A stretch of 58,080 nt of DNA, the filler included, from Bdellovibrionales bacterium RIFOXYD12_FULL_39_22 (GTDB lineage Bacteria > Bdellovibrionota > Bacteriovoracia > Bacteriovoracales > Bacteriovoracaceae), in the NCBI GenBank assembly GCA_001770205.1. It is 2 parts of 2 records of this genome, joined end to end, with 100 filler letters (N's around TTAATTAATTAA, not from the genome) between each part and the next. Parts side by side here need not be neighbours in the genome. Positions count along the whole stretch, not along the records: positions 29,831 to 58,080 come from MEQL01000045.1; 1 more part is not named here. One strand, 5' to 3'. This document shows positions 5,478 to 58,080 of this stretch, piece by piece. Numbering within the stretch: the first letter of the stretch is position 1; every line of letters starts with the position of its first letter. The position numbers and the translations under genes were made by a program. The notes under the pieces are model-generated. The model made no database searches and had not been told where the DNA came from. It worked only from the letters and a program-made list of their open reading frames with translations.

Positions 5478-5555
5478 GTACTTGGTTATCCAATCGATAT
5501 CGGTGATGGACATGATAAACGCGAATAAGAGTTTTGGCCACAAAATTTTAGCTAA

Positions 5556-6029
5556 CTATGCTCTCTCCAATGCGGCCAACGCAATCTTGGAGTACTCATC
5601 AATTTTTCTGGCCAAGTCATTCGATATTCCTTCTGCCAACTTGATCTCTTTGGGTTCAATAATCAATAGGTCTATAATTGGCAATTCTTTATAGAGAGTG
5701 CGAGCAAAATCTAAAACTTTAAATAAATCTGTGGAATGCACATCCACACTGACTTTTGGTAGTCGTTTTTTACTGCTTCGTGCCTGCTCAAGTCTAATAA
5801 CTTTATAGTCACCAGCATCTAGTCCCAAACGGCCAGTGTCCACAATTACAATGTGAGATGTCTTATTATCACAGTATGATATTAAATCAAAAACTCGGTT
5901 AGAAAGGTCCACAAAAAAAATACCCGCACGGTGATAGTTCAAACAGTTCTCTAAATGATTGGCCACCCGGATACCAACGCTATCATCATACATTAGGTAG
6001 TTACCTACTCCAATAACATACTTCTTCAA
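5556..6029 (-). CDS. Hydrogenase maturation protease
   Basis: VIGVGNYLMYDDSVG, VIVDT and H motifs; last gene of the hydrogenase operon. Confidence 0.9.
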   Translation of the reverse strand: MKKYVIGVGNYLMYDDSVGIRVANHLENCLNYHRAGIFFVDLSNRVFDLISYCDNKTSHIVIVDTGRLGLDAGDYKVIRLEQARSSKKRLPKVSVDVHSTDLFKVLDFARTLYKELPIIDLLIIEPKEIKLAEGISNDLARKIDEYSKIALAALERA

Positions 6030-6081
6030 TGGCCACTCTCAAAGCTATAAGACAGACTCTCCAACTGCATAACTACTAGCA

Positions 6082-12085: not shown

Positions 12086-12141
12086 CAGACACTTCGACTA
12101 TTATTCATATCACTATAAATGTTATCGTCACTCTCTCCGAT

Positions 12142-29830: not shown

Positions 29831-29832
29831 TA

Positions 29833-44436: not shown

Positions 44437-45027
44437 TCACTCAGCGTAAGTTTCCCCAGTATTTACCCAACCCTTCCTCGGAAGACAGGCCCGAATTACG
44501 CGGATATCTTCATCAGAAGGCTCTTCGCTAGTAGGAAGCTGTTCTACTGTAAAGCAGGCCTTCCCATCGCAATCACATATGGCATCTGGGTTTACCACCG
44601 ATCTGCAACTGTTAGTGTCTGTTAACAAATGAAGAGCTATTTTCTTTTTAATGTTTGACTTAGAGCTTTTGGTTTTAAGGGTTAAGACTAATGCGGCTTC
44701 CGCATTTTCTGGGATTACTTCAAAATCCGTAATGGTTACTCCGTCATAGATAGCACCTTTTTTATACAAAGGAGCAGAGCTGCCATCAACTACAGCAAAG
44801 ATTTCGTTTATTTTTCCAGTACCGATATTAGGAAAACCAGAAACACTAGAGAGTGATTTATTACAAGATTCTTCCTTGGCCAGGATGATCCTTATATGAT
44901 TGGCCATGCTTTCAATTTCGTAGTGAGTATCATCGTGAGATGCATCTTTTATCTGAGTATCAATGTAATTGATCATAGGAATTGTTAGTGCCGCCAATAA
45001 TCCAGCAATGAATAAGATTTGAACCAT
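44437..45027 (-). CDS. Pilin-like protein lacking a prepilin leader
   Basis: Hydrophobic N-terminal helix; shares the L...SC and C.C...CF...CLP..G motifs with its neighbours. Confidence 0.7.
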   Translation of the reverse strand: MVQILFIAGLLAALTIPMINYIDTQIKDASHDDTHYEIESMANHIRIILAKEESCNKSLSSVSGFPNIGTGKINEIFAVVDGSSAPLYKKGAIYDGVTITDFEVIPENAEAALVLTLKTKSSKSNIKKKIALHLLTDTNSCRSVVNPDAICDCDGKACFTVEQLPTSEEPSDEDIRVIRACLPRKGWVNTGETYAE

Positions 45028-45201
45028 TTTCTATCTATCCTTTATTTGTGCGTATAAAGGTTAACACGCTAGCACTTTTTTGCAAAGTGAAGAGAAAATG
45101 AAAGACAATTTATGTGTTATAAATGTTGCAACAAATCAGTTTCACATTTAGAATTTATAGTGCATATAAAAAAGAGATAACAATTTCCCAAGGAGGGGAT
45201 T

Positions 45202-46101
45202 GTGAAAATTATCGCAACCATATTTGCCATTTTTCTTATTACCAGTATGATGATGATGATGACGACTACTAGCAAGGTAGATACTTTTGTGGAGGAAAAC
45301 AACCTCTGGTATGGGCCAGAAGACAAAAGCAACCCGCAGATGACCGAAGAGATATTCGATCATGTAATTGGCCGAGTTGAGCAAATATACGCCCCCATCA
45401 TTCGTTATCGTGGGTTTGCCTTTACTTTATATCGCGATTGGAATAGCGGTACGGTTAATGCTTCGGCACGCAGATGGAGTGGGGGGAATGTTTGGGAAAT
45501 TTATATGTATGGAGGCATGGCAAGACATCCTTCAATGACCCCAGATGGTTTGGCGTTGGTTTTGTGTCATGAATTTGGCCATCATTTAGGAGGGGCACCA
45601 CTAATTACCGTATGGCCTCGAAAAGTATTGTGGGCATCAAACGAAGGACAGTCGGACTATTTTTCTGCGCTAAAATGTATGAAGCGAGTATTTGCCTCAG
45701 ACGATAATGTCTCGCTAATGAGCTCGGCGGTAATAGATCCTACTGCTGATCGAAAATGTGATAACTTTCATGCTGATGAACAAGATCGTGCTTTGTGTAA
45801 GCGAATTTCTATGGCAGCTATGGCCGTAGTTGGAGTTTTTAAAGATGTTGCTAATGATCGAAACCGAGTTAGCTTTAGTACACCATCTAAGAAAAAAGTT
45901 CGAAAAACTAATCATAAACACCCAGCACCTCAGTGTAGGCTTGACTCGTATTTTGCGGGGGCCTTGTGTGATAAAGATTATCTCGAGGATGTTAGCGATG
46001 AAGACGTAACTAGGGGAGTATGCGTTGCCGCTGAAGGAGAGGATGGAAATAATAATACTAACGCCGCGGCCAAACCAAGGTGCTGGTATAGGCCAGAATA
46101 G
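45202..46101 (+). CDS. Secreted zinc metalloprotease (HExxH)
   Basis: VNA, CHEFGHHLGG, EGQSDY, HPAPQCR; SD AGGAGG. Confidence 0.85.
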   Translation: MKIIATIFAIFLITSMMMMMTTTSKVDTFVEENNLWYGPEDKSNPQMTEEIFDHVIGRVEQIYAPIIRYRGFAFTLYRDWNSGTVNASARRWSGGNVWEIYMYGGMARHPSMTPDGLALVLCHEFGHHLGGAPLITVWPRKVLWASNEGQSDYFSALKCMKRVFASDDNVSLMSSAVIDPTADRKCDNFHADEQDRALCKRISMAAMAVVGVFKDVANDRNRVSFSTPSKKKVRKTNHKHPAPQCRLDSYFAGALCDKDYLEDVSDEDVTRGVCVAAEGEDGNNNTNAAAKPRCWYRPE

Positions 46102-46212
46102 AGAGGGATCGTGCTGCTTAAATAAAGACTAGATTTATAACTACGTTGATGCTATTTTTTTGATTGAAAATCAACTAAAAAAATTCCTAAAGTTATAGGG
46201 TATTTTTTTATC

Positions 46213-46288
46213 GGTCCCATAGTTAAAACGGATATAACGGGTCTTTCCTAAAGATCTATTAGAGGTTCAATTCCTCTTGGGACCGCCA
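46213..46288 (+). tRNA. tRNA-Arg(CCT)
   Basis: Acceptor GGTCCCA/TGGGACC, anticodon loop TT-CCT-AA, GGTTCAATTCC, CCA. Confidence 0.93.
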
Positions 46289-46289
46289 C
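46271..46289 (+). repeat. att core (tRNA side)
   Basis: TTCCTCTTGGGACCGCCAC. Confidence 0.9.
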
Positions 46290-46341
46290 TTACGCGCTAT
46301 CTATTTTAAATTATTCAACTTCCGCTCTGAAATTTCGAAAA

Positions 46342-46367
46342 TGGTCAGGTTTGGTCAGGTCAGTTTG
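46342..46367 (+). repeat. Tandem TGGTCAGG motifs, putative integrase arm-type sites
   Basis: TGGTCAGGTTTGGTCAGGTCAGTTTG; recurs at 55510-55536. Confidence 0.7.
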
Positions 46368-46399
46368 GGTTTTGATACAAATTTTTTTCTAAAATTTAG

Positions 46400-46432
46400 A
46401 AGTGGTCAGGTCGAAAACCTGACCACTTTTTT
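46400..46432 (+). terminator. Intrinsic terminator-like hairpin built from the TGGTCAGG motif
   Basis: AAGTGGTCAGGT-CGAAA-ACCTGACCAC followed by TTTTTT; between the convergent tRNA and integrase genes. Confidence 0.7.
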
Positions 46433-46436
46433 AAAA

Positions 46437-47688
46437 TCAATCTTTATCAACTAATCTTAACACTCGCTGATCACTATTTGCCTTTGCCTTTTCCACTCCC
46501 CTATCACTTTTTTCTTCTAAATTTCGCATGTACAAATTCACCTCATTGACTGCTTTCTTGTTAGTATCCGTCGGCATCGAAGCGTAGTGCTGGGCCATTT
46601 TAATATCTTTATGGCCTGTCACCGCTTGCGCTGCATCTAGACTACCTGTAACTCTCCTAGTGATCGTTCCCATCGAATGCCGCATAATATGCGTGGAACT
46701 AAATCTAGGATAGAGTCCGGCCTTTTTCAGTGCATGGTTGTATTGATACTGGATCACTCGATAAGTCAGAGGCAATCCATTTTCATGAAAGACATATCCA
46801 GATTTTGCGCTAGCAATTCTGCGACTTAGTATCTCAAACAACTTATCATTCAAAAAAATAAATCGCTCCTCGCCATTTTTAGGAACATCTTTTAGATAAT
46901 CAAACGCCTTTGATGTCCTAGCAAACACGGCCACATGCCTTACAACAATTACCCTCTCAAAAAAATCGACACTCTCAACTTGCAGGCCGGCAACCTCACC
47001 AACTCTGGCGGCCATATAAAATTGAGTCTCCGCAAAATCCCTCCAAAAAGGAGAGAGCTGCTCGAAAAACTTCAAAACCTCATCGGCTGACATCTTTGTT
47101 ATCACGCTTAACTAGCTTACGAATCACGCCGACCGTTTTATGCCGGCGAAGCACTGGATTAACAAACATCGGATCATAATTTTCTCTATACCAGTTAAGC
47201 ATCGACTTAAGACACTTCAAATCATCGTTAAAATTGTATCGCCTGCTTTTTAGTTTGATGGCATCTTTCTTGTGACTTTCAATAAATCTATCAAGCAAAT
47301 CAGCAGTAATCTCCACCATCTTAAATTCAAACAGAGGATATAAAAATCCTTCTTTGGCCAAGCGATGTAGTGCGGTAGATCGCTCAAGAGAAGGAAGGTA
47401 TAATTTTTTATATAACTCCCACACATCTTTTAAGCGATATCCAAAATCCTCTCCATTTTGCCTGACTTTTATGTTCGGTAATAATTGCGACCTGGCCTCA
47501 ACAACTTTTTCTGGTAACGATGGATGAAATACATTCTTCCAATTAATCGCGTCTTTTAACAGCAAAAACTTTTTAGAATACTCTCTACCATTGATGTATT
47601 TGGTTACCAAAAACTGCCCATTGTCCAAATCCTTCCTAATACCTTTGTAATCTGCGACCTTCTCATATCTTCTTTTATTATCACTCAT
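46437..47688 (-). pseudogene. int: Tyrosine integrase split by a frameshift near 47095
   Basis: N-part 47080-47688 and catalytic part 46437-47105 (R in ARVGE, K, HIMRH, GH, HY); removing one A in AACAAAGATG fuses the two frames. Confidence 0.85.
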
Positions 47689-47944
47689 ACTTTTCTCCTT
47701 CTAAAATCCAACTAAGGATTTCATTGGGAATAAAAAATAGAAGTCCACCTTTTTTCTTCTTCGGAATCTTCTCTGATGCTACAAGATTATAAATATGGCC
47801 GACTGAACAGCCCAAATATTTTGCAACATCCCTCACTCGCCATATTCGATTGTAAAAGAACTCACCATCATCTTTCGATTCAGGTACCCCACTATAACGC
47901 TTCGATGACACTTTGTAATCTAAATCTAAAATACCCTCACTCAT
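47681..47944 (-). CDS. xis: Excisionase-like helix-turn-helix protein
   Basis: WRVRDVAKYLGCSVGHIYNLV...IPKKK.GGLLFF; overlaps the integrase start. Confidence 0.85.
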   Translation of the reverse strand: MSEGILDLDYKVSSKRYSGVPESKDDGEFFYNRIWRVRDVAKYLGCSVGHIYNLVASEKIPKKKKGGLLFFIPNEILSWILEGEKYE

Positions 47945-48049
47945 AACCTCTCCTCTCCAAATACCCCTAATTGATTTTACCCCGCACCTTTTTTAATATT
48001 TTTTTTTACAATAATACCTCCTTTGCTCTGTTAATCTTTCTTCCCTTTT

Positions 48050-48180
48050 GCCCCGATTCATCCGACTAATTTTCCACTTTCCAGCACCGTTTTTGACTAT
48101 ATCCTCACAACCTTGGTTGGGGGGATATAGTCAAAAACAAGGTGCGCCGAACATTTGGAAATCAAACGACAAATCGGGGC
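48050..48180. repeat. Nested inverted-repeat structure, candidate origin (oriT/ori)
   Basis: Perfect 16-bp IR GTTTTTGACTATATCC (48089-48104)/GGATATAGTCAAAAAC (48123-48138); inner CAACC/GGTTG; outer GCACC/GGTGC and GCCCCGATT/AATCGGGGC. Confidence 0.8.
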
Positions 48181-48203
48181 ATCAAAAATGACTCCTAAAC
48201 TAA

Positions 48204-48231
48204 TTCAACCCTGCTTCAACCAGGGTTCAAC
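48204..48231 (+). repeat. Three TTCAAC hexamers with an 11-bp period
   Basis: TTCAAC at 48204, 48215 and 48226. Confidence 0.65.
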
Positions 48232-48241
48232 TTTTGAAATT

Positions 48242-48973
48242 CTACTGGTGAAAAATACTTCTCAGTGTGGTAATTCGCCCTTCAAAAAATGCTGGCGAAT
48301 CCATTAGATCAAATTGTCTGTTTTTAATTTCTGGCGCTAGGAGCAAAATAATATTGTCCTGACAGCGCCTGTTTTTCATTGCATCAACATGAAAATCAAC
48401 TCGTTCGATACTCCTTTTGTACGCCTCAAAGACCGGTGTCTTTTGAATGATGTACAACACTTTGCTGTATGGTGAGTCTTTATTCATGTAGTCTCGAAAC
48501 TTATTTTCAACTCTGTCATAGCTTTTTTGCGTAATCTCCACTTCAATGGCCAACTCTTTCCCCTCCCAGAAATTTGGCTGCATGGTGAGTGCGCAATCTG
48601 GCCTGCGATCGGCACCTGCCAGGTCGAGGTAGATGCGGCCTTCTTTCACCTGTGGCAGCTTTAATAGATACTGGAAGACATTTACCGTAATGATGTCATG
48701 GTGAATAATCTCCTTGTTCACACCCCAAGCATTGTTCAGTCCGGCCTCCGCTAATCCTTTCTCAGTGAGAAAAAGATACTTGCGGTAGTTTTGAAAATAG
48801 ACCGACGCAAGATATCCAAAATCCTCCAGCTTCTTTACTCTTTTTGCAAATGCCTGATGTGAATAGTTGTAGTCGACCTTTTTTAAAAGCGTGGTCAGGT
48901 CTAAAATTATCCACGATGCTAACGTTTGAATAATGTCCTCATAGGTGCCAGAATACATCATCATTTTGTCCAA
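48242..48973 (-). CDS. Replication-relaxation (Replic_Relax-like) wHTH plus PD-(D/E)XK protein
   Basis: wHTH ending YLFLTEKG, HHD, RPD...AIEVEITQKS..R; SD AGGAGG before the TTG. Confidence 0.7.
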   Translation of the reverse strand: MDKMMMYSGTYEDIIQTLASWIILDLTTLLKKVDYNYSHQAFAKRVKKLEDFGYLASVYFQNYRKYLFLTEKGLAEAGLNNAWGVNKEIIHHDIITVNVFQYLLKLPQVKEGRIYLDLAGADRRPDCALTMQPNFWEGKELAIEVEITQKSYDRVENKFRDYMNKDSPYSKVLYIIQKTPVFEAYKRSIERVDFHVDAMKNRRCQDNIILLLAPEIKNRQFDLMDSPAFFEGRITTLRSIFHQ

Positions 48974-48994
48974 TAAGTACCTCCTGGTTGTTGG

Positions 48995-49555
48995 TTAATA
49001 TTTTGATGCATCTCTTTTTTTAATAAGCTCCTCGATGGATTTTTCAAAGTACCAGCCGATATAACCTAGTGTAGCAAAGTTATAAATAATATAGAGCAAT
49101 GCCACCCAAATACTAGGTGTCGGCGTTACAAAAATGTATGCCACTGCATAAATGGCAAAGGGTGCATAGAAAAAATAGCGCATCCTCTGCATAAGTTTTA
49201 TCTGTCCGTAGAATAAATTGTAGCGATACTTAAAAAAATCTGTCACAGCAAGCGCACAATCAATAGAGTCTGTCGCGCGATTTGCCCGCAGTTGCATAAC
49301 CGTTAAAGTCAGCACACTCAAAAATGGAAGCGAGTAGAAGACTCCTCCAATCATCGATGAGGCGTAAAAAATACGCACAAAAAAATACAAGGACGCCAGT
49401 GGCAGTACAATATTTTCCATTCTGCTATCACTCTTCCAGCTGCCCTGAAACTTTTTAATACTATCCTCAATGTACTTGCGATCTTCTACGTAGCTTGCCT
49501 TGGACTCTTCATCCATCTGTTTAACTAATTTATCCATATAGTGACTATTTGACAT
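48995..49555 (-). CDS. Multi-TM membrane protein, putative anti-sigma factor
   Basis: About four hydrophobic segments; overlaps the 3' end of the ECF sigma gene. Confidence 0.7.
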   Translation of the reverse strand: MSNSHYMDKLVKQMDEESKASYVEDRKYIEDSIKKFQGSWKSDSRMENIVLPLASLYFFVRIFYASSMIGGVFYSLPFLSVLTLTVMQLRANRATDSIDCALAVTDFFKYRYNLFYGQIKLMQRMRYFFYAPFAIYAVAYIFVTPTPSIWVALLYIIYNFATLGYIGWYFEKSIEELIKKRDASKY

Positions 49556-50057
49556 CCTCTGCCCCCTTGTTCATATACTCATCAATTCTTTTCCATAGTC
49601 TGTTTAGCTTTGTTGAGACGTTGGTCAGCGATAATCCCAAGACATCAGCGATATCCTGCTGACTCTCCCCAATCAAATAGAGATAGATCAACTCGCGATC
49701 AATCGGTTTAAAGGTGGACGCGTAGTTGATCATAAAATTAAAATCTATCTGATCCTCCACCGAAATTTCGGGAGGGATCTCAATCGAATCGACATCTACA
49801 TCCAGATCGCGCAGCTTCTCAAATTCCTCGGCCTCCACATGTTTCAAACAAGTATTGAGCGTAACCCGATACGCCCAAGTTGAAATTTGGCAATCTCCAC
49901 GGAATGAGTCCATGGACCGATATAACTCACAGAGTATCGTTTGATGAAGTTCTTCTCGCTTGCTTGGATTTTTCTCATGGAGGTGGCAAAGTCGCTTAAT
50001 CTGCCTATCACTGCCTCTTATCATCTCAAAAAAACGCTCTTGCTTACTTCCGCTAAT
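49545..50057 (-). CDS. ECF RNA polymerase sigma factor (start ATT 50057 or ATG 50024)
   Basis: Region 2 (ELHQ...SFRGDCQISTWAYRVTLNT); region 4 (DRELIYLYL.GESQQDIADVLGLSLTNVSTKLNR). Confidence 0.88.
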   Translation of the reverse strand: MSGSKQERFFEMIRGSDRQIKRLCHLHEKNPSKREELHQTILCELYRSMDSFRGDCQISTWAYRVTLNTCLKHVEAEEFEKLRDLDVDVDSIEIPPEISVEDQIDFNFMINYASTFKPIDRELIYLYLIGESQQDIADVLGLSLTNVSTKLNRLWKRIDEYMNKGAEDVK

Positions 50058-50469
50058 GAAATCCTCCTTGTTCGTGTTTTTGTTGTTCCTATTAGTATTA
50101 GTACCTATTTTTCAGGAAATCTCACGGCCGTTTTTAAAAAAAATGCAAATATTCAATAATTACAAGGAAATATGATAGAAAAAAGTTCTATGAATTTGGT
50201 CGCCGCGGGCCAATTATGAGGCCCAAAGCGGCGAGGGCCTGCTTGATACAAATATTTAAGGACAATATAAACGTATGGGATTTGTAGGCATTGGGCGAGC
50301 GAAAACCATTTCGTTTTTACTCACGCTTCAAATTAAATTGCATAAACTTCAATTCCTGATATATTGCGCGACAAATATTCCTGCACAATTTAACTCTGCC
50401 AAAGCTTATTGTTAAGTTGCCAGGAAATGAAGTTATTGTGATGATCCTGTCTTGGTTTAGGAGAAAAAT

Positions 50470-53067
50470 ATGAAATTACTAATTATACTGTTGTGCCTAT
50501 CTGTTGGTTTTGTTGGTTGTTCCGGTGACAATCATGGGGGGATAAAAAGTACCAGCGATTTAAATAAAACAGAAGGAATGAGTGATTTGATTCTATCAGA
50601 GACTGCGCATCCAATTATTTATAGTTTCCCGGGTTGCAAGTCTGAGATTCTAAGTGACGAGAATACATTCATCCTTTGCTCTGATCGGGTAGCCTTATTG
50701 AGTAATGATGGTAAAATTCTTTTTAACTACGAACAATATTATTCTAAATACTCCAATCAATTTGAACGCATCGAAGGAGATATTTTTTTAATTAAGTTCC
50801 TGACGCGAAAGCTTGTGAGTCCCAAGGGTGAGATAAAGCTGGATAAAGATTTACTTTATTCCGATTATCTTGGAGTAGAAGATGGGATTATGTACTTCTT
50901 TGAAAATGGTGTTTTGTACCATGTGTCTGTGACTTCTGGTGAAATACTAAAAAAGATAGATGGTTTGCCAAAGGGAGAGAAAGTTTCTCTTCTTGATGGT
51001 AAATTATTAATTCAAAGCACTTCAGATCGATGGCACATTTCTCTTAATGACCCGAAAACTGGAGATAATATTTACTTTTATTCTTATGAAGATTTTCCTA
51101 GCGAAATCGCTAAACTTAAATCAACGATTAAGATAAATGAAGACCTTACGGTTGCAATCTTTGAAGCCAAAATTGCCTCAGGTCAATCCTACGAGTTCTT
51201 ACGATTTTTCTTTAGAAATGGAGACCACAAGGACTTTAAAACTGAGCTTCGAACCAAATTGAACGTGGCAAAGACGTCAAAAAATGAAGTTATTGCGTTT
51301 ACCGATGGTGAAATGGAAACTTCAAGGTTAATCAAATTTAACCTTGAAGGCGAAAAAGTTGGTGAGACGCCACTTGATATTCCAGGTACATACCTCAAGC
51401 AACTAGGATCTGTTTTCTATCATCAAAGTAGTGGACCACTTAGTGTATACAACTCAGAAGGTAAAAAAATTGTTGAAATTGACAATAGTGATGTTGTAAA
51501 TCCAAGCGTTTTTGCAGTAACGACTAAATTTGCGCACGTTCTAATTACTGACAAGGCCTTTGTCGCAATTGATCTTGAAGGTGTAGTTCTTTTTAAAAAG
51601 CAATTTGAGTTTTCATTAGCCAATAGTGCATATCTTGACCAGAAATCTGAATCATTATATGTCGCCAACAAAAATGCCATTGACAAGTATGACCTAAATG
51701 GGAATAAGGAAGTTTCCTATCTGGATTCTCCAATACAGCTGACCAACGTCGTTGGTGTTGATGGCCAAAAAGTATTTGTGCAAACAAATAAGAATGAGGT
51801 ATTAGCTGTCAATTTTGATTCACAAAAAATAGTTTGGAAATATCAAGTTTCAGCACTTCGCCCTATAAAGTTAAAGAGTCCATTTCTAAGGTTACCTTTC
51901 AACTCGGGACTTGCATTCGTTCCCGTTTATGAAAATGTAAGTCCAATATATATAAACACGGCTTCTTCCAATTTATTATCCACTTACAACCAGGGAGCTG
52001 TTGTCGTAACAGGAGATGGACTTAGGTTGTATAACTTACAAAACAAACTTATTAAATTCTTTCCGGTAGCAGGTCTTCATTATTGCCAGGCCTACGATGG
52101 GTTCGTGTCTTGTCGTCAATTTGGGCGTGTTTTTCTATTCAATCTTAAAGATCAGACCTTTAGTTCGAACACAATCCCTGGCGACGCCCCATTGTTATAT
52201 TCTAATGGTCAATTCGTTACCATCAATAACTCAAAATTATATTTTATAAATCGAAGTGGAGAAATTGTAGATACAAAGGATTTAGGGAATGGGTTTTATT
52301 TGTCGGATATGGCCCAATTATTGCCCAATGGTAACTTCCTATTTATAGATACTAGATATGCAGAAATGTTGATAGTCAAACCTAGTGGAGAGGTGGTTAA
52401 GCAATTATATCTTAAAGGTAATGGTGACATTAAAGACGTCAATGTAATAGGTGACGTCCAGCAAGGAAGCATATATGTGAAACAAGTTGATGGATATTAT
52501 TCTCGAACTATTAAGTACGACCTTGCAGGTAATCTTGTGCGAATGTACATGAACTTGATTAATTATATTCCCGTAAACAATTCTGAAATTGACGTTTTGT
52601 GTAGAGAAAGAGGAGACATAATCACTCTATACAATCAGGCAGGCGAAGTCCTGGCCCAAAAGGACTACTATAGTCAATACCCAAATCAGGTGATGCTTTT
52701 TGAAAAGGATGAGAAAAACCCCTGGGTAGCTATTACTCACGAAGCAGCGTACCAAAAAAGAAATTTGTGGTTTTATAATTCACGTTTAGAGAAACAGTTT
52801 GGAATAAAAGGATGGCCCGATCCCGCTGAAGGTACCAGTGGAGATCTTGGAGTTGGTGCACTAATTATCGATGGGAGACTTGTAGACTTTGGTAAAAAGC
52901 GAGTAATTGGTTTGCCCGAAAATGGGGACTATAAACTGAACAGCCAGGCCAACAAAATCTATATTAGCCATAGACTATATTCGTATGAGTCAGCAATTTT
53001 AGCGCTCGACCTTGATCAGATAATTGGTTTAAACGCAGTGAAGTTCGAACTTTCAGAGGAGGAATAA
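50470..53067 (+). CDS. Large lipoprotein, probably multi-beta-propeller
   Basis: Lipobox FVGC; recurring blade-like motifs (KFNLEGE, VYNSEGK, IDLEG, KYDLNG, LYNQAGE); SD AGGAG. Confidence 0.8.
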   Translation: MKLLIILLCLSVGFVGCSGDNHGGIKSTSDLNKTEGMSDLILSETAHPIIYSFPGCKSEILSDENTFILCSDRVALLSNDGKILFNYEQYYSKYSNQFERIEGDIFLIKFLTRKLVSPKGEIKLDKDLLYSDYLGVEDGIMYFFENGVLYHVSVTSGEILKKIDGLPKGEKVSLLDGKLLIQSTSDRWHISLNDPKTGDNIYFYSYEDFPSEIAKLKSTIKINEDLTVAIFEAKIASGQSYEFLRFFFRNGDHKDFKTELRTKLNVAKTSKNEVIAFTDGEMETSRLIKFNLEGEKVGETPLDIPGTYLKQLGSVFYHQSSGPLSVYNSEGKKIVEIDNSDVVNPSVFAVTTKFAHVLITDKAFVAIDLEGVVLFKKQFEFSLANSAYLDQKSESLYVANKNAIDKYDLNGNKEVSYLDSPIQLTNVVGVDGQKVFVQTNKNEVLAVNFDSQKIVWKYQVSALRPIKLKSPFLRLPFNSGLAFVPVYENVSPIYINTASSNLLSTYNQGAVVVTGDGLRLYNLQNKLIKFFPVAGLHYCQAYDGFVSCRQFGRVFLFNLKDQTFSSNTIPGDAPLLYSNGQFVTINNSKLYFINRSGEIVDTKDLGNGFYLSDMAQLLPNGNFLFIDTRYAEMLIVKPSGEVVKQLYLKGNGDIKDVNVIGDVQQGSIYVKQVDGYYSRTIKYDLAGNLVRMYMNLINYIPVNNSEIDVLCRERGDIITLYNQAGEVLAQKDYYSQYPNQVMLFEKDEKNPWVAITHEAAYQKRNLWFYNSRLEKQFGIKGWPDPAEGTSGDLGVGALIIDGRLVDFGKKRVIGLPENGDYKLNSQANKIYISHRLYSYESAILALDLDQIIGLNAVKFELSEEE

Positions 53068-53402
53068 CTTCAAGACGGATCTGACATAATTGATTGCAAT
53101 TTCTGTGTATGCTGGTGATCGCTTTAATCTCACTGTATGTCATTACCTAATAAGGTTTTATAAATTTGAGGTCGATAAAACTAAGCTCAGTGATTTAGGA
53201 CTAGGATTGTAAGCGGTTTGTGCTCGGGAACATTGGCGTATAATGGATCATGTGCAGAAAGGCGAATATTTCTGAGCACGATCACGAACGTTTGAATATG
53301 ACGAGCATTTCCCAGATTTCTAATATTCTTTTCTTTATACAACCAATCTAGTGCCTCAAAATCAATTTCTAACTCATTAATTAAAGATAATTGAATCTTT
53401 TT

Positions 53403-53432
53403 GATGCTTTATGCATCTTATTGGTGTATAAT
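53403..53432 (+). promoter_or_regulatory. Putative TA operator GATGC-N5-GCATC and TATAAT -10 box
   Basis: Arms are conserved in the second copy (57807-57821) while the spacer differs. Confidence 0.6.
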
Positions 53433-53448
53433 AATAGCAGGAGGATTT

Positions 53449-53679
53449 ATGAGTAAAGCAAGAACTGTCAGACTAGATGATGAAATCGATCCACTTGTTG
53501 ATCAATTCCTCGAAAAAAACTCCATCAATCTTAATAAAATGGTAAATATGGCCATCAAAGAATTTATTACCAAGCCACACACGATCGAGCTTGAGCCAAT
53601 CTCTGATGTAGAGTGGGAAAAGGCCACTAAGAAATCTTATAAAAAACATAAGAAGGCCATGATAGAACTATCAAAATGA
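53449..53679 (+). CDS. Ribbon-helix-helix-like antitoxin
   Basis: RTVRLDDEI...NLNKMVNMAIKEF; SD AGGAGG; ATGA overlap with doc. Confidence 0.8.
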   Translation: MSKARTVRLDDEIDPLVDQFLEKNSINLNKMVNMAIKEFITKPHTIELEPISDVEWEKATKKSYKKHKKAMIELSK

Positions 53680-54095
53680 AAATTAAAATCCCAAATGTCG
53701 ATTTGATAATTAAGACAAATAACATTGTAAGTGAAGAGCAGGGCCAAAAATCTGTACTGCTTGATCGAGGTAAAATAGAAAGTGCCCTCTCTACTGCCTT
53801 TTACCCTGGCTCAGAACCTTTTCAGAATGGTGGTGTTGCCAAAATTGCCGGAGTGCTCTGCTTTTACTTAACAAAGGCGCATGCATTCCAAGATGGAAAC
53901 AAAAGAACCGCCACATTAACTGCTATCACATTTATGAATTTAAATGGATGGGATCTTACCTATCCAGAAAATGATGAAGAAAATTATTCAGAACTTGCAC
54001 TTGTGATAAACCAGGCCACGGCCAGCGAAATAACAAAAGATCAATTGATTGCCTGGTTCGATCTACACAAAATTCCATACGACGAAGAGGAATGA
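53676..54095 (+). CDS. doc: Doc (Fic family) toxin
   Basis: HAFQDGNKRT Doc-type motif. Confidence 0.92.
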   Translation: MKIKIPNVDLIIKTNNIVSEEQGQKSVLLDRGKIESALSTAFYPGSEPFQNGGVAKIAGVLCFYLTKAHAFQDGNKRTATLTAITFMNLNGWDLTYPENDEENYSELALVINQATASEITKDQLIAWFDLHKIPYDEEE

Positions 54096-54105
54096 TCATC
54101 CACAT

Positions 54106-54720
54106 TCAGCTAGTTGGTCTTATCTCTACCTTGACATCAAAATGTGCACGTCGAACCATGTCGTTAAGAGCTAAGACAACCCATGATTCTACGGGTTCGC
54201 GCAAACACTTTGCAATTCTCATTGCACGTTCAACGCTGGGAATCTTGCGGCCTTTTTCGAGATCGCGAAGGCCTTGTGGAGTGATCCCCAATTTTTTTGC
54301 AAATTCTCGCTGGCCTTTTTCATCCGCAAGTCTATAGGATTTGAGAGCATTGCCAAATGTTAGTGCGCCAAACTCAGCTTCAAAATCCGAAGTTGTGTAA
54401 TGTTTAGTGGCCATGTTTTGAGACCCCTTCAAAGGAGTGCTCTTGTCGGCCGAATAGTGCTTTTTCTCATAATCGGAAACAAGTTCTGAAAGAGTATTGA
54501 GGTATGTTAAAAGGCCATCGTCCTTTGCCAGCACAACCGATGTACTGCTAAATGTTATTAACTTTTCAATTACCTTAAGTGCTTCTGTGTGTTTGGCCTT
54601 TGTTGTAATAGCAAGAAGTGGATATAAGGCCACAAGCTGTATATAAGAATCACTGACCTTGGCCCGCGCGGTCGGAAGATCCTCTTTCAACGTATCAATC
54701 AATTTTTTTGCGATGCTCAT
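54106..54720 (-). CDS. HigA-like N-terminal fragment fused to an XRE HTH protein (internal ATG at 54414)
   Basis: YLNTLSELVSDYEKKHY (HigA-like); GQREFAKKLGITPQGLRDLEKGRKIPS (XRE HTH). Confidence 0.75.
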   Translation of the reverse strand: MSIAKKLIDTLKEDLPTARAKVSDSYIQLVALYPLLAITTKAKHTEALKVIEKLITFSSTSVVLAKDDGLLTYLNTLSELVSDYEKKHYSADKSTPLKGSQNMATKHYTTSDFEAEFGALTFGNALKSYRLADEKGQREFAKKLGITPQGLRDLEKGRKIPSVERAMRIAKCLREPVESWVVLALNDMVRRAHFDVKVEIRPTS

Positions 54721-54835
54721 AATCTCTCTTTATTCCATTTGTTTGTTTCTGCTGGACCAGTCAAACCACTAACAAAATCTACTCAAGCTCTATCTAGAGA
54801 ATAATCATGTGCGCTTGTCTCCAAGCACTCATCTG

Positions 54836-55162
54836 CTACAACGCAAACGTTGCTTGAAGATGCTTGCTGGCGGTGGCCATCTCCTCGGCCGTGGCCTTGC
54901 CTAATTTTTTTAGAAATCTACTTTTTGAAATTGAACGAATATGCTCTATGCATGCCTGACCTTGTTCATCATTTAGTTTTATAGCTACTCTCGACGGCCA
55001 ATCCTTTAATGATCTTGTCATTGGTAAAACAATAACAGTTCCAAGACCGTTATTCATTGAATTAGGCCCAACGACCAAGCATGGCCTAACGCCATCCTGC
55101 TCACTATCCCGAACTGGATATAATTTAACCTTCCAAATCTCACCATACTGGGGCGTAGTCAT
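54836..55162 (-). CDS. mazF: PemK/MazF family toxin
   Basis: GEIWKVKL.PVRDSEQDGVRPCLVV, VIVLPMT, EHIRSISKSR. Confidence 0.92.
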   Translation of the reverse strand: MTTPQYGEIWKVKLYPVRDSEQDGVRPCLVVGPNSMNNGLGTVIVLPMTRSLKDWPSRVAIKLNDEQGQACIEHIRSISKSRFLKKLGKATAEEMATASKHLQATFAL

Positions 55163-55388
55163 TTTCATCCTCTAGATCAGCATCACTCCATTCTTTATCA
55201 AGTGATGCCTTGCCATTAAATTTCCATTTTGAGTTGTGCGGTAAATAACTCTCTAGCAATACTTTTTTGTTGTCAACGTTGGTAAACTCAAGAAGATCGC
55301 CTTCTTTAACCTGAAGTGACTCCTGAATCTCCTTTGGTAAAATTACTCCTAGTGAATTTCCGATCTTTCTAATTTTAATTGCAGACAT
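55140..55388 (-). CDS. mazE: AbrB/MazE family antitoxin
   Basis: KIRKIGNSLGVILPK...LQVKEGD. Confidence 0.9.
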   Translation of the reverse strand: MSAIKIRKIGNSLGVILPKEIQESLQVKEGDLLEFTNVDNKKVLLESYLPHNSKWKFNGKASLDKEWSDADLEDENDYAPVW

Positions 55389-55405
55389 AATCACCTCTTA
55401 GTATA

Positions 55406-55425
55406 GTTATAACACATGTTATAAC
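55406..55425. promoter_or_regulatory. Putative mazEF operator (two GTTATAAC palindromes)
   Basis: GTTATAAC-ACAT-GTTATAAC directly upstream of the antitoxin SD. Confidence 0.65.
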
Positions 55426-55509
55426 CTAAATCAAGAAGATATTCAAGGCCACAAACAGGCACAATCAACGGTGTCAGTCCCCGAATAGTACCGACCAAGA
55501 TTCAAAATC

Positions 55510-55536
55510 TGGTCAGGTTTTGGTCAGGTCAGTTTG
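55510..55536 (+). repeat. Tandem TGGTCAGG motifs, distal putative arm-type sites
   Basis: TGGTCAGGTTTTGGTCAGGTCAGTTTG; same as 46342-46367 plus one T. Confidence 0.7.
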
Positions 55537-55643
55537 TTAAATCAAATGAAAATGAATGAGAAAAAATGAAGAAGAAAAATGGCAACCCGCTAAATTTATT
55601 CCTATCTTGTTAATATTAAAAACTAAATTTTTCTCAATTTGCT

Positions 55644-55662
55644 TTCCTCTTGGGACCGCCAC
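55644..55662 (+). repeat. att core (distal copy of the tRNA 3' end)
   Basis: Exact match to 46271-46289. Confidence 0.9.
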
Positions 55663-55775
55663 ACACCCGCTAAATACCTGTAATTATTCATAAAATTTCT
55701 AAAAATTACTTGAGCTGTCTGGTTCTGTCTGTTAAGTATCGCGTCAATTTGGTACGAACCTTTTTCAAAAACAGG

Positions 55776-55802
55776 GCTGTCTGGTTTTTAAAACCAGACA
55801 GC
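55776..55802. repeat. 13-bp inverted repeat built from the CTGTCTGG motif
   Basis: GCTGTCTGGTTTT-T-AAAACCAGACAGC; the motif is also tandem at 55714-55731. Confidence 0.7.
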
Positions 55803-55856
55803 TCGGTTTATTCGGTTAATAAGTATAAAATTGAATGCGAAGAGACTTAACAAACA

Positions 55857-56171
55857 CTAGCAGACTTTTTTCAAACGAACTTGTAACTCTAGTCCTAGTG
55901 CCTCTAGAATTTTCACAATGCTTTTGTAAGATGGATTACCATTTTCAGAGAGCATTTTATAAAGTGCCTGCCTATTAATTCCACTCTCATCTGAGATTTT
56001 ACTCATGCCATTTGCTTTTGCGACATCATTTAAAGCATGAACTAAAAACTCACTGTCATTTTCTTCTACCGCAGAATTAATATACTCGGCCGCAAACGCT
56101 GCATCTTGCAACTCCTCCATAAGATGATCTTCAAACCTAATATTCTTTTTAGCTTTTAATAAATCACTCAT
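55857..56171 (-). CDS. Addiction module antidote protein (HI1420-like HTH)
   Basis: AAEYINSAVEE..LVHALNDVAKANGMSKIS..SGINRQALYKMLSENGNP. Confidence 0.9.
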   Translation of the reverse strand: MSDLLKAKKNIRFEDHLMEELQDAAFAAEYINSAVEENDSEFLVHALNDVAKANGMSKISDESGINRQALYKMLSENGNPSYKSIVKILEALGLELQVRLKKVC

Positions 56172-56517
56172 GATCTTGCTCCTTGTACTCTTGATAAAGG
56201 CCAATCGCTTTTACGATATCTCTACCTTGCGTCGATTTGTCTCCACCTATCAGGAGCAGCAACAATTCATTCTCTCTGGTTATGGAAAAATACAATCGAA
56301 GGCCTGGCCCGTATGGTATTCTCATCTCGTAGACCCCTTCGCGAAGATATTTGTAGTCGCCAAGATTTCCGAGGGATGCCCTTTTTATTCGCACCAACAC
56401 TCGGGCCTTTGCGATATTGTCCTTTAATGACCGGAGCCAATCAAGAACAAAGCACCTTCCATCTTTTGTCGTTAAGAACTCTACTTCCCGATTTCTACTC
56501 TCTTCTAATTTTACCAT
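56164..56517 (-). CDS. RelE/ParE-family addiction module toxin (HI1419-like)
   Basis: GNLGDYKYLREGVYEMRIPYGPGLRLYF, LLIGGDKSTQGRDI. Confidence 0.92.
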   Translation of the reverse strand: MVKLEESRNREVEFLTTKDGRCFVLDWLRSLKDNIAKARVLVRIKRASLGNLGDYKYLREGVYEMRIPYGPGLRLYFSITRENELLLLLIGGDKSTQGRDIVKAIGLYQEYKEQDHE

Positions 56518-56751
56518 CACCTATCTCCACTGTCAACTATAGGCGACACGAGTGTAAGTTTTCCACGTGCTACTGTTTTGGGATTTCCATTCACCGTTGC
56601 CATAAAACGCAGGGCTTCGTTCACCGCATTTTTATTGGCCTCACACCGTTCGATGTCTTTTTAGTACTGGGTATATATACATAGGATCATAATTTTCCCG
56701 ATACAAGTTAGAAATTGCTTTTAAGAATTTTAATTCGGATTCGAAACTACA
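56517..56751 (-). pseudogene. Internally deleted remnant of a second integrase, not in the ORF track
   Basis: LKFLKAISNLYRENYDPMYIYPVLKRHRTV matches integrase 1 LKCLKSMLNWYRENYDPMFVNPVLRRHKTV; directly followed in another frame by EANKNAVNE, matching DTNKKAVNE. Confidence 0.85.
56531..56548. promoter_or_regulatory. Imperfect palindrome, putative TA operator
   Basis: TGTC-AA-CTATAG-GC-GACA just upstream of the toxin start. Confidence 0.5.
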
Positions 56752-57283
56752 ACTCTATACCGTTGCCTTGTGGCGGAGAACAAGGCGTACTCATTCCCGC
56801 TTACGTTTGTTGTCCTCGGCCATCTGGAATTTAATCGGTCGGACCTGTCTGACACGAATCTTCTTTTGAAATCGGCTCAACTATAAAAGAAAAATGCCGA
56901 GCGAAACAATCCCTATCCCTGCGGTAGTGGCCCACCACCAGATTCGATTCATTATGAACCAGAACCGGACGGATGGGATTCTGGCTACAAAGGGGCTTAA
57001 CCACCCGTTTATTTTAGCAATATAACAGAGGTTTCAGCTAGAAGCTCGTGAGAGCTTTGTCTTCTGGCCGGCCAAATCCAAGGGATTTCATACACGCGCG
57101 CGTCTTTCGGACTTTTTTCAGTTGGCCAACAATTTTAGTTCTATGATTTTAGGATTTCTGGTAGGATTTCAGAGCGGAGGGTATTTTGAAGACCCCATTT
57201 ATAATTCCTTAACACGTTGTGCAGAACAACAATACAATTCAGCGAGCGATCAAACGTGACGACGCCCAACTGCGAGGTAACTC

Positions 57284-57610
57284 ATGCGAGTGAGCAAGTG
57301 TCACATACGGAGTTTAGGCATCTACGCCCTGCTAATCGTGTATTGGTTAGTGGTGGGGGGGGGCTTTCGAGAACATGGAGGAGAAAAAATGCTCACACAA
57401 GACGAGGTAATTGCAGTCGCAGTAAAGGAGTTGGCCAAACAAGGACACGTAGCCATCGAGTACGACATCACTGTTGAGGCCAACCCTGGCAACGAGAATG
57501 AGTTGATCGTCTGGTTCGATCTAAAGGGTGCATTTCGGATTCCGGGAGGTAAACACGCCGTGATCGTTGACAAGCGCACCAGGCATGCCGAGTTCATGGC
57601 CGGTGAGTGA
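57284..57610 (+). CDS. Small hypothetical protein (alternative start 57389), possibly immunity-like
   Basis: GC-richer than its flanks; GGAGGAG before ATG 57389; PGG.HAVIVDKRT C-terminus. Confidence 0.55.
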   Translation: MRVSKCHIRSLGIYALLIVYWLVVGGGFREHGGEKMLTQDEVIAVAVKELAKQGHVAIEYDITVEANPGNENELIVWFDLKGAFRIPGGKHAVIVDKRTRHAEFMAGE

Positions 57611-57852
57611 TAGTAGCCTCCATCAGGGGCTCATGCCGTAGTAGTGTTGGTATTAGTCTGTCATTGGGGCCCCGCGTCTACGGCCCTGCGTCAAAAAAAA
57701 ATCAGCAAAAGATGTGGGTTAAGCTAAGAATCACAATTATTCTTTTGCAATTCTTCCTTCGAACCAACACCCTAAGTCATTAGTTTATGGCAAATTAAAT
57801 CTTTTTGATGCAAAGTGCATCTTATTGGTGTATAATGACAGCAGGAGGATTT

Positions 57853-58080
57853 ATGAGTAAAGCAAGAACCGTCAGACTAGATGATGAAATCGATCCACTT
57901 GTTGATCAATTCCTCGAAAAAAACTCCATCAACCTTAATAAAATGGTAAATATGGCCATCAAGGAATTTATTACCAAGCCACATACGATCGAGCTTGAGC
58001 CAATCTCTGATGTAGAGTGGGAAAAGGCCACTAAGAAATCTTATAAAAAACATAAGAAGGCCATGATAGAACTATCAAAA
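57853..58080 (+). CDS. Second copy of the RHH-like antitoxin (stop codon just beyond the window)
   Basis: Protein identical to 53449-53679; 4 synonymous nucleotide differences. Confidence 0.85.
   Translation, partial: MSKARTVRLDDEIDPLVDQFLEKNSINLNKMVNMAIKEFITKPHTIELEPISDVEWEKATKKSYKKHKKAMIELSK

Follow-up and report, generated by a model that had tools for sequence, protein, structure and literature searches.

The present analysis concerns a stretch of DNA of 58,080 nucleotides (hereafter the window) from Bdellovibrionales bacterium RIFOXYD12_FULL_39_22, in which the segment between positions 46271 and 55662 is probably an integrative and mobilizable element (IME) belonging to an undescribed family of integrative and conjugative elements (ICEs) as well as IMEs of Bdellovibrionota. 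The element is inserted in the 3′ end of a tRNA-Arg(CCT) gene and displays, all in the same orientation and in this order, a promoter-like motif, a gene encoding an extracytoplasmic function (ECF) sigma factor, a gene encoding a membrane partner with four transmembrane (TM) segments, a gene encoding a relaxase-like protein of 243 aa, a palindrome, xis and int.

The window consists of two joined contigs, positions 1–29730 corresponding to contig C43 and positions 29831–58080 to contig C45 in full, the end of which is at 58080 (contigs and loci are designated below by C and L numbers). The genome (3.95 Mb in 62 contigs, 39% GC, completeness 94.6%, contamination 1.4%) has its relatives among Bacteriovoracales and Halobacteriovorax-like Bdellovibrionota. 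The stretch is present in sequencing runs of groundwater and soil metagenomes, which are flagged as its possible sources.

Integration Site and Core Genes

The tRNA-Arg(CCT) gene (46213–46288, plus strand; found by ARAGORN and matched by the Rfam tRNA model with 57.6 bits) is the integration target and carries the attL core (46271–46289) in its 3′ end, the attR core (55644–55662) being an exact repeat of it. A preliminary description of the same DNA, made from the sequence alone, had predicted a circle of 9373 bp from these repeats, and both copies of the 19-bp core TTCCTCTTGGGACCGCCAC are indeed exact, lie 9373 bp apart and are the only two in the 3.95-Mb assembly. By an arithmetic estimate, about 0.006 exact pairs of 19-mers would be expected by chance in 58 kb. 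The likeness between the flanks of attL and attR runs beyond the cores to 47 nt at 81%, and no third copy was found in the assembly at up to three mismatches, bar one unrelated site on C55. A close integrase is located at a tRNA-Arg(CCT) gene in locus L027, but this tRNA differs in sequence and the att core does not match. A search of Rfam over positions 45900–58080 matched the tRNA alone, and neither the palindrome nor the GC-rich hairpin described below matched any RNA family.

Both ends of the element carry the repeat TGGTCAGG, as two tandem copies followed by an inverted pair on the attL side (46342–46425) and as two tandem copies on the attR side (55510–55528), which may be the arm-type sites recognized by Int and Xis on the two arms. 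This motif occurs eight times in the window for 0.81 expected, seven of these copies being within the element, including one inside the 243-aa gene. Immediately past the stop codon of int, this inverted pair gives, in addition, a terminator-like hairpin (46428–46400, minus strand). A lone copy of TGGTCAGG was observed at position 5264 (minus strand), 130 nt from a tRNA-Arg(TCG) gene (5401–5477) on C43; no integrase was detected near this tRNA, runs of N being close by.

The genes encoding the integrase, Xis, the 243-aa protein, a 186-aa protein and the ECF sigma factor are all on the minus strand and face the tRNA, in agreement with the gene list and orientations of the preliminary description, which were correct. 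Its report that the element is devoid of capsid, terminase, type IV secretion system (T4SS) and coupling-protein genes was likewise borne out, since none was matched by Pfam on the 12 open reading frames (ORFs) of at least 75 aa accepted as genes in the element or by PHROGs on 10 of them. The tyrosine integrase gene (46437–47688, minus strand) is frameshifted and comprises an N-terminal ORF (47080–47688) and a catalytic ORF (46437–47105); the latter matches PF00589 (E = 2.7e-17, 63.5 bits) and phrog_1 (E = 2.5e-27). The Xis-like protein (87 aa, 47681–47944, minus strand) is of the HTH_17 type (PF12728, 37.8 bits) and scores 24.3 bits with the TIGR01764 excisionase model, under its cut-off of 28.8; the stop codon of its gene overlaps the start of int. 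The Int-Xis module announced earlier was found with its xis gene and catalytic domain, but with a split integrase.

A Divergent Relaxase-Like Protein

The 243-aa protein (48242–48973, minus strand) appears to combine a winged helix-turn-helix (wHTH) and a PD-(D/E)xK domain. A word-indexed search provided 14 relatives, which together with four paralogues from the same genome constitute alignment A1; the profile derived from it retrieved 797 representatives with E ≤ 1e-3, of which 104 had E ≤ 1e-30. Seven columns are invariant in 16 sequences (H92, D93, D126, E144, E146, Q149 and K150), and the same seven recur in 38 C-terminal domains of the family. Among them, D126, E144, E146 and K150 are what we take to be the PD-(D/E)xK catalytic motif.

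The connection of this family with MOBC relaxases is remote and was detected by profiles. Of 16 members, 10 are recognized by the NF041423 model ("MobC family replication-relaxation"), the best with E = 5.8e-7, and PF13814 (Replic_Relax) matches one of the 16 and five of 48 sampled distant representatives, three of them above its gathering score (25.3 bits). One distant representative (P0100) matches genes annotated as "replication-relaxation family protein" on four Bacillus plasmids classified as mobilizable by MOB-suite, and one of these plasmid records (H2) has a relaxase typed as MOBC. Comparison of A1 with this MOBC-typed protein by hhalign gave a probability of 94% and an E value of 1.5e-7 over 128 columns, the HD motif and the E-x-E...K block each pairing with counterparts. 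PF13814 has been equated with the MobC superfamily (PMC5357655), and MOBC relaxases are PD-(D/E)XK enzymes, TraX of pAD1 having an N-terminal winged helix and forming no covalent intermediate (PMC12857230).

The AlphaFold models are confident, with a pLDDT of 88.5 for the full-length protein and of 91.4 for that of the C-terminal domain. The first 80 residues adopt a winged-helix fold, which scores Z = 12 with MarR-type proteins at root-mean-square deviations of 1.3–2.8 over 65–77 residues. The fold search with the full model was swamped by wHTH proteins, and the C-terminal domain was therefore modelled and searched alone. Its top matches are nearly all PD-(D/E)xK nucleases (Z = 6–8.2) and include Can2, R.BspD6I, PaqCI, VC1899, BstEII, Cdn1, SdaI, YaeQ and FokI. 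These Z values are modest, so the fold call rests on the consistency of the match list and on the motif. A search of PDB sequences with the family profile gave only TubR (E = 0.011) and PadR (E = 0.41), both of which are generic wHTH matches. Taken together, sequence and model suggest that the 243-aa protein is a remote MOBC/Replic_Relax relative and a putative relaxase, which would nick the element and lead its transfer.

Gene Neighbourhoods and Distribution of the Family

A scan of loci encoding relatives of the 243-aa protein, with one genome per species, yielded 53 loci (Bdellovibrionota, 44; Elusimicrobiota, six; Actinomycetes, one), of which 50 have a callable homologue, five of these being in the genome under study. 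A coupling-protein homologue is encoded directly upstream in 32 of the 50 loci (Pfam-checked in L002, L023, L041 and L063), and in two of the 48 sampled representatives a coupling protein and the 243-aa domain are fused into one protein. Within six genes downstream, an integrase gene is present in 42 of 50 loci and a gene encoding a single-stranded DNA-binding protein (SSB) in 21 of 50; most loci display a xis-int pair. In the tested loci, Pfam identified the coupling-protein domains TraG-D_C, TrwB_AAD_bind and T4SS-DNA_transf as well as TrbI/VirB10-like, CagX/VirB9-like and VirB4-like P-loop_TraG proteins, SSB, HTH_17 Xis and PF00589 integrases. No other relaxase family turned up among the ICE genes scanned.

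Three architectures can be distinguished: (i) an ICE-like one in about 20 loci, including those on C46 and C11, with T4SS, coupling protein, 243-aa homologue, a 134-aa gene, SSB, xis and int; (ii) one with ECF sigma factor, membrane protein, coupling protein, 243-aa homologue, xis and int in L039, L041, L048, L049 and L050; and (iii) the same arrangement devoid of coupling protein in the window, L009, L012, L013 and the fragment L014. Therefore, the gene set, whose recurrence in related genomes the preliminary description had left to be searched, does co-occur in other genomes. In a maximum-likelihood tree of 48 homologues, the window and L009 to L013 form one clade (support 93/94) whose members all lack a coupling-protein gene, and the ICE-linked proteins are mostly found in another clade.

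The two ICE-like elements of the same genome, on C46 and C11, encode a VirB4-like P-loop_TraG ATPase (5e-18), CagX-like and TrbI-like proteins, a coupling protein and a 243-aa homologue, which is followed by SSB, xis and int on C46, C11 ending at the homologue. PF03135 (VirB4/CagE) has no match in this genome, the VirB4-like ATPase matching PF19044 (P-loop_TraG) instead. Judging from these genes, the C46 and C11 elements are possible T4SS helpers; their relaxase-like proteins are only about 25% identical to that of the window and they have their own palindrome variants.

Some additional features of these loci were noted. The C46 element (1–23759) carries as cargo an Eco57I-like methylase, a BsuBI/PstI endonuclease, GmrSD, a RelA/SpoT-like protein, ORF6N and an AbiGi-like protein. 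Locus L012 contains two xis-int modules (5327–6774 and 10692–12325), the second with two adjacent HTH_17 genes, which suggests tandem elements. The integrase gene of L012 and that of L041 are each followed by an fpg (MutM) gene, and in these loci the 5.5 kb around the 243-aa homologue showed no tRNA.

A Conserved Palindrome Downstream of the Relaxase-Like Gene

The preliminary description had pointed to a hairpin as a candidate origin. This sequence is a palindrome of 50 bp (48089–48138) with 24-nt arms that are 92% complementary (DNA fold of −20.2 kcal/mol, z = −7.7), and its conservation turned out to be family-wide. The 300–400 nt following the gene were scanned in the window and in 49 further loci. 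In 39 of these 50, the strict pattern T(T/C)GAC(C/T)...(A/G)GTCA is located 60–116 nt beyond the stop codon, that of L044 overlapping the stop as called. An unbiased scan for inverted repeats adds L009, L019, L021, L024, L029 and L031, giving about 45 of 50 loci; the palindrome is missing in L005, where the gene is a pseudogene, and in L052, L053, L056 and L057.

An alignment was built from 32 of the 39 pattern loci, after omission of near-duplicates (L003, L028, L046 and L049) and of longer stretches (L015, L023 and L025). In the resulting helix of 20 pairs, 83.1% of the cells are paired, compared to 38–48% when the partner column is slid. Changes on both sides were found in 16 of the 20 pairs (118 cells), and none of 500 shuffles reached the covariation score. 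TGAC...AC...GTCA is invariant, and no T-run follows the palindrome on either strand. Single-side states of the G-U type are nearly absent, which speaks for a DNA palindrome rather than an RNA hairpin. It is located between the relaxase-like gene and, in ICE forms, the gene encoding SSB, a typical leading-region gene. We consider it a candidate origin of transfer (oriT) or relaxase-binding site, with chances that we judge about even.

Sigma Factor, Membrane Partner and Promoter-Like Motif

The ECF-type sigma factor (159 aa, 49545–50024, minus strand) possesses regions 2 and 4, with scores of 57.9 bits for TIGR02937 (cut-off 42.9), 32.9 for PF04542 (cut-off 24) and 24.1 for PF08281, just under the cut-off of 25.7. 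Its gene is followed by that of the 186-aa membrane protein (48995–49555, minus strand), a putative anti-sigma partner whose N-terminus is hydrophilic over about 45 aa and which has about four hydrophobic segments. The start of the 186-aa gene overlaps the ECF stop codon by 11 nt, and the distance from its own stop (48995) to the start of the 243-aa gene (48973) is 21 nt, as had been indicated. In the window and in nine of nine other loci with an ECF homologue, the gene after that of the sigma factor encodes a protein of 182–207 aa with such an N-terminus of about 45 aa and hydrophobic segments, and it mostly overlaps the sigma stop codon by 4–14 nt. The relaxase-like gene has such a pair upstream of it in L009, L012, L013, L014, L039, L041, L048, L049 and L050. 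A complex prediction for the sigma factor and residues 1–52 of the 186-aa protein gave a score of 0.06 for a mark of 0.32, which speaks neither for nor against binding. Of the sigma/anti-sigma pair proposed earlier, the ECF sigma factor and a recurring membrane partner can thus be retained, but the "anti-sigma" protein matches no known family.

A promoter-like motif, GTGAGAT-N16-TACTAA, precedes the sigma gene (50098–50125, minus strand). In the form GTGAGAT-N16-TACTAA(T/G), it is common to five loci from different genomes, being kept in L009, L012, L013 and L014; L041 has the variant GTGATAT-N...-TACTAA, and variants are also present in L039, L050 and probably L048 and L049. It has three copies in the genome under study, one in this element and one each ahead of the 243-aa homologues on C13 (L001, 8743–8895) and C19 (L003); the latter two lie about 600 nt upstream of the homologue and are associated with no ECF gene. 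Between motif and homologue on C13 and C19, tblastn for a decayed ECF or coupling-protein gene gave nothing below E = 0.03, and there is no convincing ORF; furthermore, the ECF of the element was the only one of this type found in the genome. A loose version of the motif has seven matches genome-wide, compared to 7–16 in shuffled sequences. Since it is not enriched, the promoter argument rests on orthologous position and not on counts.

In other genomes, too, the relaxase-like gene is preceded by the sigma–membrane protein pair and the motif, which are therefore regarded, from this comparison of loci, as backbone and not as cargo. This arrangement fits a sigma control of the mobility operon, and the sigma factor of the window may control the C13 and C19 elements in trans.

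A GC-rich nested hairpin (50201–50233) lies in the regulatory region upstream of the ECF promoter motif; it is common only to siblings in the same genome (C13, C49 and, as a variant, C19), and the 53 loci of other genomes lack it. In some ECF homologues, conserved codons can be aligned before the first ATG, GTG or TTG (67 codons in L009, 6133–6333; 51 in L012, 8680–8832; nine in L014, 241–267), which suggests an unusual start codon or a protein shorter than the alignment implies.

Proposed Mobilization of the Element

In the mobilization that we propose, the sigma factor would be released from its membrane partner and the operon would then be autoactivated; Xis and Int would recombine the two 19-bp cores to form the 9373-bp circle. 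The relaxase-like protein would bind and nick at or near the palindrome, and the DNA would be handed over to a helper's coupling protein and T4SS, candidates for this helper being the ICE-like elements of C46 and C11. The element would finally reintegrate at tRNA-Arg in the recipient. The anatomy, the remote homology, the shared gene order, the palindrome and the frameshift are shown by the sequences; nicking, sigma control, the anti-sigma function and the identity of the helper are inferred, as is the signal-controlled activation suggested in the preliminary description.

A more specific version of this scheme is tentative, and we hold it to be rather doubtful. In it, an envelope-gated and self-amplifying switch made of the ECF sigma factor and the 4-TM protein times mobilization, one sigma factor may co-ordinate several islands, and the 243-aa family is the hitherto unrecognized relaxase, with a palindromic oriT, of conjugative elements in Bdellovibrionota. 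The partner would retain the sigma factor until a cue at the cell surface is received, for instance contact within a mating pair, the assembly of a helper T4SS, or prey or envelope stress. The freed factor would turn on the relaxase, xis and int genes, and through the motif copies on C13 and C19 it could co-ordinate the excision of several islands.

Cargo Genes and Neighbouring Remnants

A regulatory region of 445 nt separates the ECF gene from a divergent gene (50470–53067, plus strand) encoding an 865-aa lipoprotein with tandem beta-propellers (BamB/PQQ-like). Its signal peptide and lipobox are visible, its Pfam and NCBIfam matches are weak, and matches obtained in the atlas are leads only; it is not conserved alongside the sigma module. 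The other cargo genes include two toxin-antitoxin pairs, both made of adjacent, overlapping genes. One (53401–54095, plus strand) encodes a Phd-like antitoxin (53401–53679), which matches no family, and a Doc toxin (53676–54095) that matches PF02661 Fic/Doc (31.8 bits), TIGR01550 (39.0 bits for a cut-off of 38.65) and phrog_577 (1.3e-16). The other (54836–55394, minus strand) encodes MazE (55140–55394; PF04014, 44.4 bits) and MazF (54836–55168; PF02452, 82.5 bits). Between them, a gene (54106–54720, minus strand) encodes a 204-aa HTH protein of the XRE family, a possible repressor of the element (PF01381, 42.2 bits; PHROG repressor families), with a paralogue on C7 that is 63% identical. The cargo genes would stabilize the element.

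The first 1861 nt of C7 (1–1861, L006) correspond to the right end of a paralogous element without mazEF, with 89–90% DNA identity to 54455–54743 and 55470–55656; this element has only the first 13 nt of the att core and then diverges.

The region beyond attR (55663–58080) appears to be a remnant of a second element integrated in tandem. It contains the repeat motif CTGTCTGG with a hairpin (55769–55809), a HigB/HigA-like pair, a 35-aa integrase remnant (56644–56748) and a second phd copy at the contig end, and the sequence to the right of attR has 81% similarity to the stretch after attL, resembling the integrase-proximal end of an element. From this resemblance, we interpret it as a decayed tandem neighbour. 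The two phd copies (53389–53676 and 57793–58080) are 96% identical, and C45 ends within the second. C51 begins with the 3′ end of Doc at 97% identity, and from this match it probably continues the C45 locus.

Several repeats were also observed in this part of the contig. A repeat of about 185 nt (57015–57202) has at least eight copies on other contigs (C28, C1, C46 twice, C54, C62, C47 and C52) and a word depth in Logan of 3–4 times the baseline; it may be an element resembling miniature inverted-repeat transposable elements. The short repeat preceding the second phd copy (57652–57731) recurs at or near the ends of C47, C35 and C19 and so breaks the assembly. That preceding the first copy (53200–53327) recurs on C49, C51, C54, C47, C27 and C4.

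Arguments Against This Interpretation and Alternative Explanations

Several results weigh against reading this segment as a mobilizable element with a relaxase and a sigma switch of its own. The integrase gene consists of two overlapping ORFs in different frames, whereas relatives of about 400 aa are encoded by one intact ORF; compared to the intact paralogues of L004 (394 aa) and L001 (427 aa) from the same genome, it has one extra base near 47095 that generates a +1 frameshift and extends no homopolymer. The frameshifted gene is reproduced in a Logan contig of run X1 (20,380 nt, 0 differences over 45000–53528) and in one of run X8 (0 differences over 45000–48647), so that an artefact in the assembly as deposited is ruled out. 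Both runs are possibly source samples, and their agreement is not independent biology. Because of the frameshift, autonomous excision is improbable: this copy is probably unable to excise by itself and locked in place unless an integrase acts in trans. Paralogous integrases with 70–80% identity are encoded elsewhere in the genome, but at other tRNAs. The junctions that the preliminary description had proposed to look for, attP and empty attB, were not found in the Logan contigs of runs X1, X8, X9 and X10 over 45000–58080, contigs that drop rare forms and are thus silent on rare excised circles, those of X9 and X10 being short scattered pieces; none of them joins 46289 and 55662 in either direction. 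The sole skip in these contigs, from 54727 to 55470, corresponds to the paralogous element of C7 and not to excision.

It could thus be proposed that the segment is a dead island, a decaying chromosomal remnant with inactive mobility genes that is kept for its cargo only. The broken integrase, the lack of excision junctions in contigs, the decay of the tandem neighbour and the presence of two toxin-antitoxin pairs, which favour retention, all speak for it, and we regard it as a real possibility, although one with less than even chances. All other backbone genes are intact ORFs that keep the family-invariant columns, the arm repeats are intact, integrase paralogues exist in the genome and contigs are blind to rare forms; moreover, the identity of the att cores over 19 of 19 positions together with the intact remaining backbone makes the frameshift look recent, which suggests a recent lesion rather than long decay. 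The nature of the 243-aa protein is a further point of weakness. The searches with hidden Markov models proposed in the preliminary description gave the PF00589 match of the catalytic ORF, but no match of the 243-aa protein to PF13814 even at E ≤ 10, nor to any other Pfam family; it scores 19.7 bits with NF041423, whose curated cut-off is 200. Its Replic_Relax identity therefore holds at the level of remote profiles, through the relatives and hhalign, and not as a direct match. The C-terminal Z of about 8 falls in a range common for models without a clear match, and tblastn of the protein against 72,556 plasmids (PLSDB) gave nothing. The palindrome is downstream of the gene, whereas oriT is upstream of the relaxase gene in characterized MOBC systems (bioRxiv 10.64898/2026.01.13.699239), and TraX of pAD1 binds direct repeats located 70–120 bp from nic (PMC12857230), which contrasts with a palindrome. 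A terminator-like hairpin (48227–48207) follows the 243-aa gene, so that xis and int may be outside the same transcript. The main alternative for the palindrome is the operator of a dimeric regulator, which the covariation could equally fit. The 243-aa protein might be a sequence-specific regulator or a nuclease of another function, for instance a repressor of xis-int or a defence nuclease, and the palindrome its operator, any transfer relying on the oriT and relaxase of a helper: Watson–Crick covariation devoid of G-U states resembles a dimeric wHTH operator, the palindrome sits between the 243-aa gene and xis-int, and the fold scores fit restriction and CRISPR-ancillary nucleases equally well. 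This appears quite unlikely given the profile-level homology to MOBC-typed relaxases, the constant pairing with coupling-protein genes, the lack of any other relaxase candidate among the ICE genes scanned, and invariant residues of catalytic type that a pure repressor would not need. It is still less likely that the protein is a replication initiator or plasmid-maintenance protein and the element an integrative plasmid replicating from the palindrome after excision. The name "replication-relaxation" reflects an unsettled role, the palindrome could act as an origin, and the best PDB sequence match is the plasmid-partition protein TubR (fold Z = 10.4), but the TubR match is limited to the generic wHTH; furthermore, coupling-protein genes are adjacent or fused to the gene in the loci mentioned above, T4SS genes lie upstream in ICE-like relatives, and plasmid records provided no match.

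ECF/anti-sigma pairs are common beside lipoprotein or outer-membrane genes. This raises the possibility that the ECF–membrane protein pair is ordinary cargo, an envelope-stress module for the divergent lipoprotein gene 445 nt away that is unrelated to mobility. Within the clade of the window, L011 keeps the membrane protein with no detectable ECF gene in the 913 nt upstream and L010 has neither, which speaks for this explanation and against the proposed switch. The 186-aa protein itself matches no Pfam, NCBIfam or PHROG family and no anti-sigma domain and shows no invariant column in nine homologues, and the presence of the motif ahead of the sigma-less elements of C13 and C19 means that a host sigma factor could read it. 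We nevertheless consider the cargo explanation unlikely: nine other loci keep the pair upstream of a relaxase-like gene or of coupling-protein and relaxase-like genes; the divergent neighbours differ in all nine and the lipoprotein never recurs; the single copy of the motif in the element precedes the ECF gene, not that of the lipoprotein; and the overlap between the genes and the spacing of 21 nt suggest that the pair shares an operon with the 243-aa gene. The preliminary description had envisaged "a minimal mobilisable or satellite-type element". The former part agrees with a compact tRNA-integrated element that has T4SS-linked relatives, but the latter found no support. Its small size, its Int-Xis module at a tRNA and its lack of structural genes would suit a satellite similar to phage-inducible chromosomal islands and mobilized by a helper phage, but PHROGs matched only integrase, excisionase/HTH, sigma, repressor and Doc proteins, with no packaging, primase or capsid-redirecting genes, and all informative relatives are linked to T4SSs, which makes such an origin extremely improbable.

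Relationships with Known Systems and Implications

The reading as an IME, which we thus retain as probable, can be compared to several described systems. Similarly to the MOBC relaxases TraX of pAD1 and MobC of CloDF13, the 243-aa protein would associate an N-terminal winged helix with a PD-(D/E)xK domain within about 230–250 aa, its family relatives are often paired with a coupling-protein gene, and there is homology at the profile level. It differs from them by its failure to match PF13814, by its score far under the NF041423 cut-off, by the near confinement of its family to Bdellovibrionota and, as regards the MOBC systems already described, by the downstream palindrome. The element also resembles the streptococcal IME_Class_8 (Coluzzi et al. 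2017, PMC5357655) in having a compact relaxase-excisionase-integrase module, and it would likewise borrow a T4SS. However, IME_Class_8 encodes a MobC relaxase, VirD4 and a serine integrase, whereas the element of the window encodes a tyrosine integrase and sits at a tRNA; it is devoid of a coupling-protein gene (sister lineages have one), it carries an ECF–membrane protein module, and its host is Gram-negative and predatory.

Sigma factors have been described in mobile elements. As for Sig7-8 of Tn916 (Gomberg & Grossman, bioRxiv 10.64898/2026.10.01.756105), the sigma gene is upstream of and co-oriented with xis-int at the element end, and by analogy the promoter-like motif ahead of it makes an autoactivating excision switch plausible. 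The sigma factor of Tn916 is split in two subunits with no membrane partner and the relaxase is of the MOBT type; the window encodes a single-chain 159-aa ECF factor and a 4-TM protein. SigN of pBS32, as reported in the same preprint, is another mobile-element sigma factor with positive feedback, but it is encoded on a plasmid, responds to DNA damage and leads to cell death, not to excision or transfer.

The candidate helper T4SS of this genome has a VirB4 signature of Bacteroidetes type (P-loop_TraG), which likens it to the setting of the Bacteroides elements NBU1 and NBU2. NBU elements integrate at tRNA genes. They are, like the element proposed here, small IMEs, which have their own relaxase and oriT and are mobilized by a co-resident conjugative element, but they carry MobP relaxases and no sigma module (PMC5704250).

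The preliminary description did not recognize this combination, which is new in its details and not in kind, since IMEs with MobC-type relaxases (PMC5357655) and sigma-controlled excision (Tn916) are already described. On the basis of the sequences compared, what appears to be new is (i) a divergent relaxase-like family missed by standard models and almost confined to Bdellovibrionota, (ii) a conserved downstream palindrome and (iii) a module made of a single-chain ECF factor and a membrane protein before relaxase-xis-int. The literature searched (main texts, outside subscription journals) provided nothing relevant on such elements in Bacteriovorax, Halobacteriovorax or Bdellovibrio, nor on ECF/anti-sigma control of conjugative elements. 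A 2025 study of Bacteriovorax sp. As-1 mentions genomic islands but "no tra/mob genes" (PMC12642874).

The practical importance of this copy is limited by its broken integrase, and its cargo is ordinary. The predators of Bdellovibrionota are considered as living antibiotics, and their gain and loss of DNA are poorly known. The 243-aa family escapes the Pfam relaxase model, yet it adjoins coupling-protein and T4SS genes in dozens of Bdellovibrionota genomes. Together with the palindrome, it is a concrete candidate for the missing relaxase and oriT, and so a handle for the annotation of ICEs and IMEs. Furthermore, an ECF factor and its membrane partner placed before relaxase-xis-int would extend the sigma switch of Tn916 to elements of Gram-negative bacteria, with gating by envelope signals.

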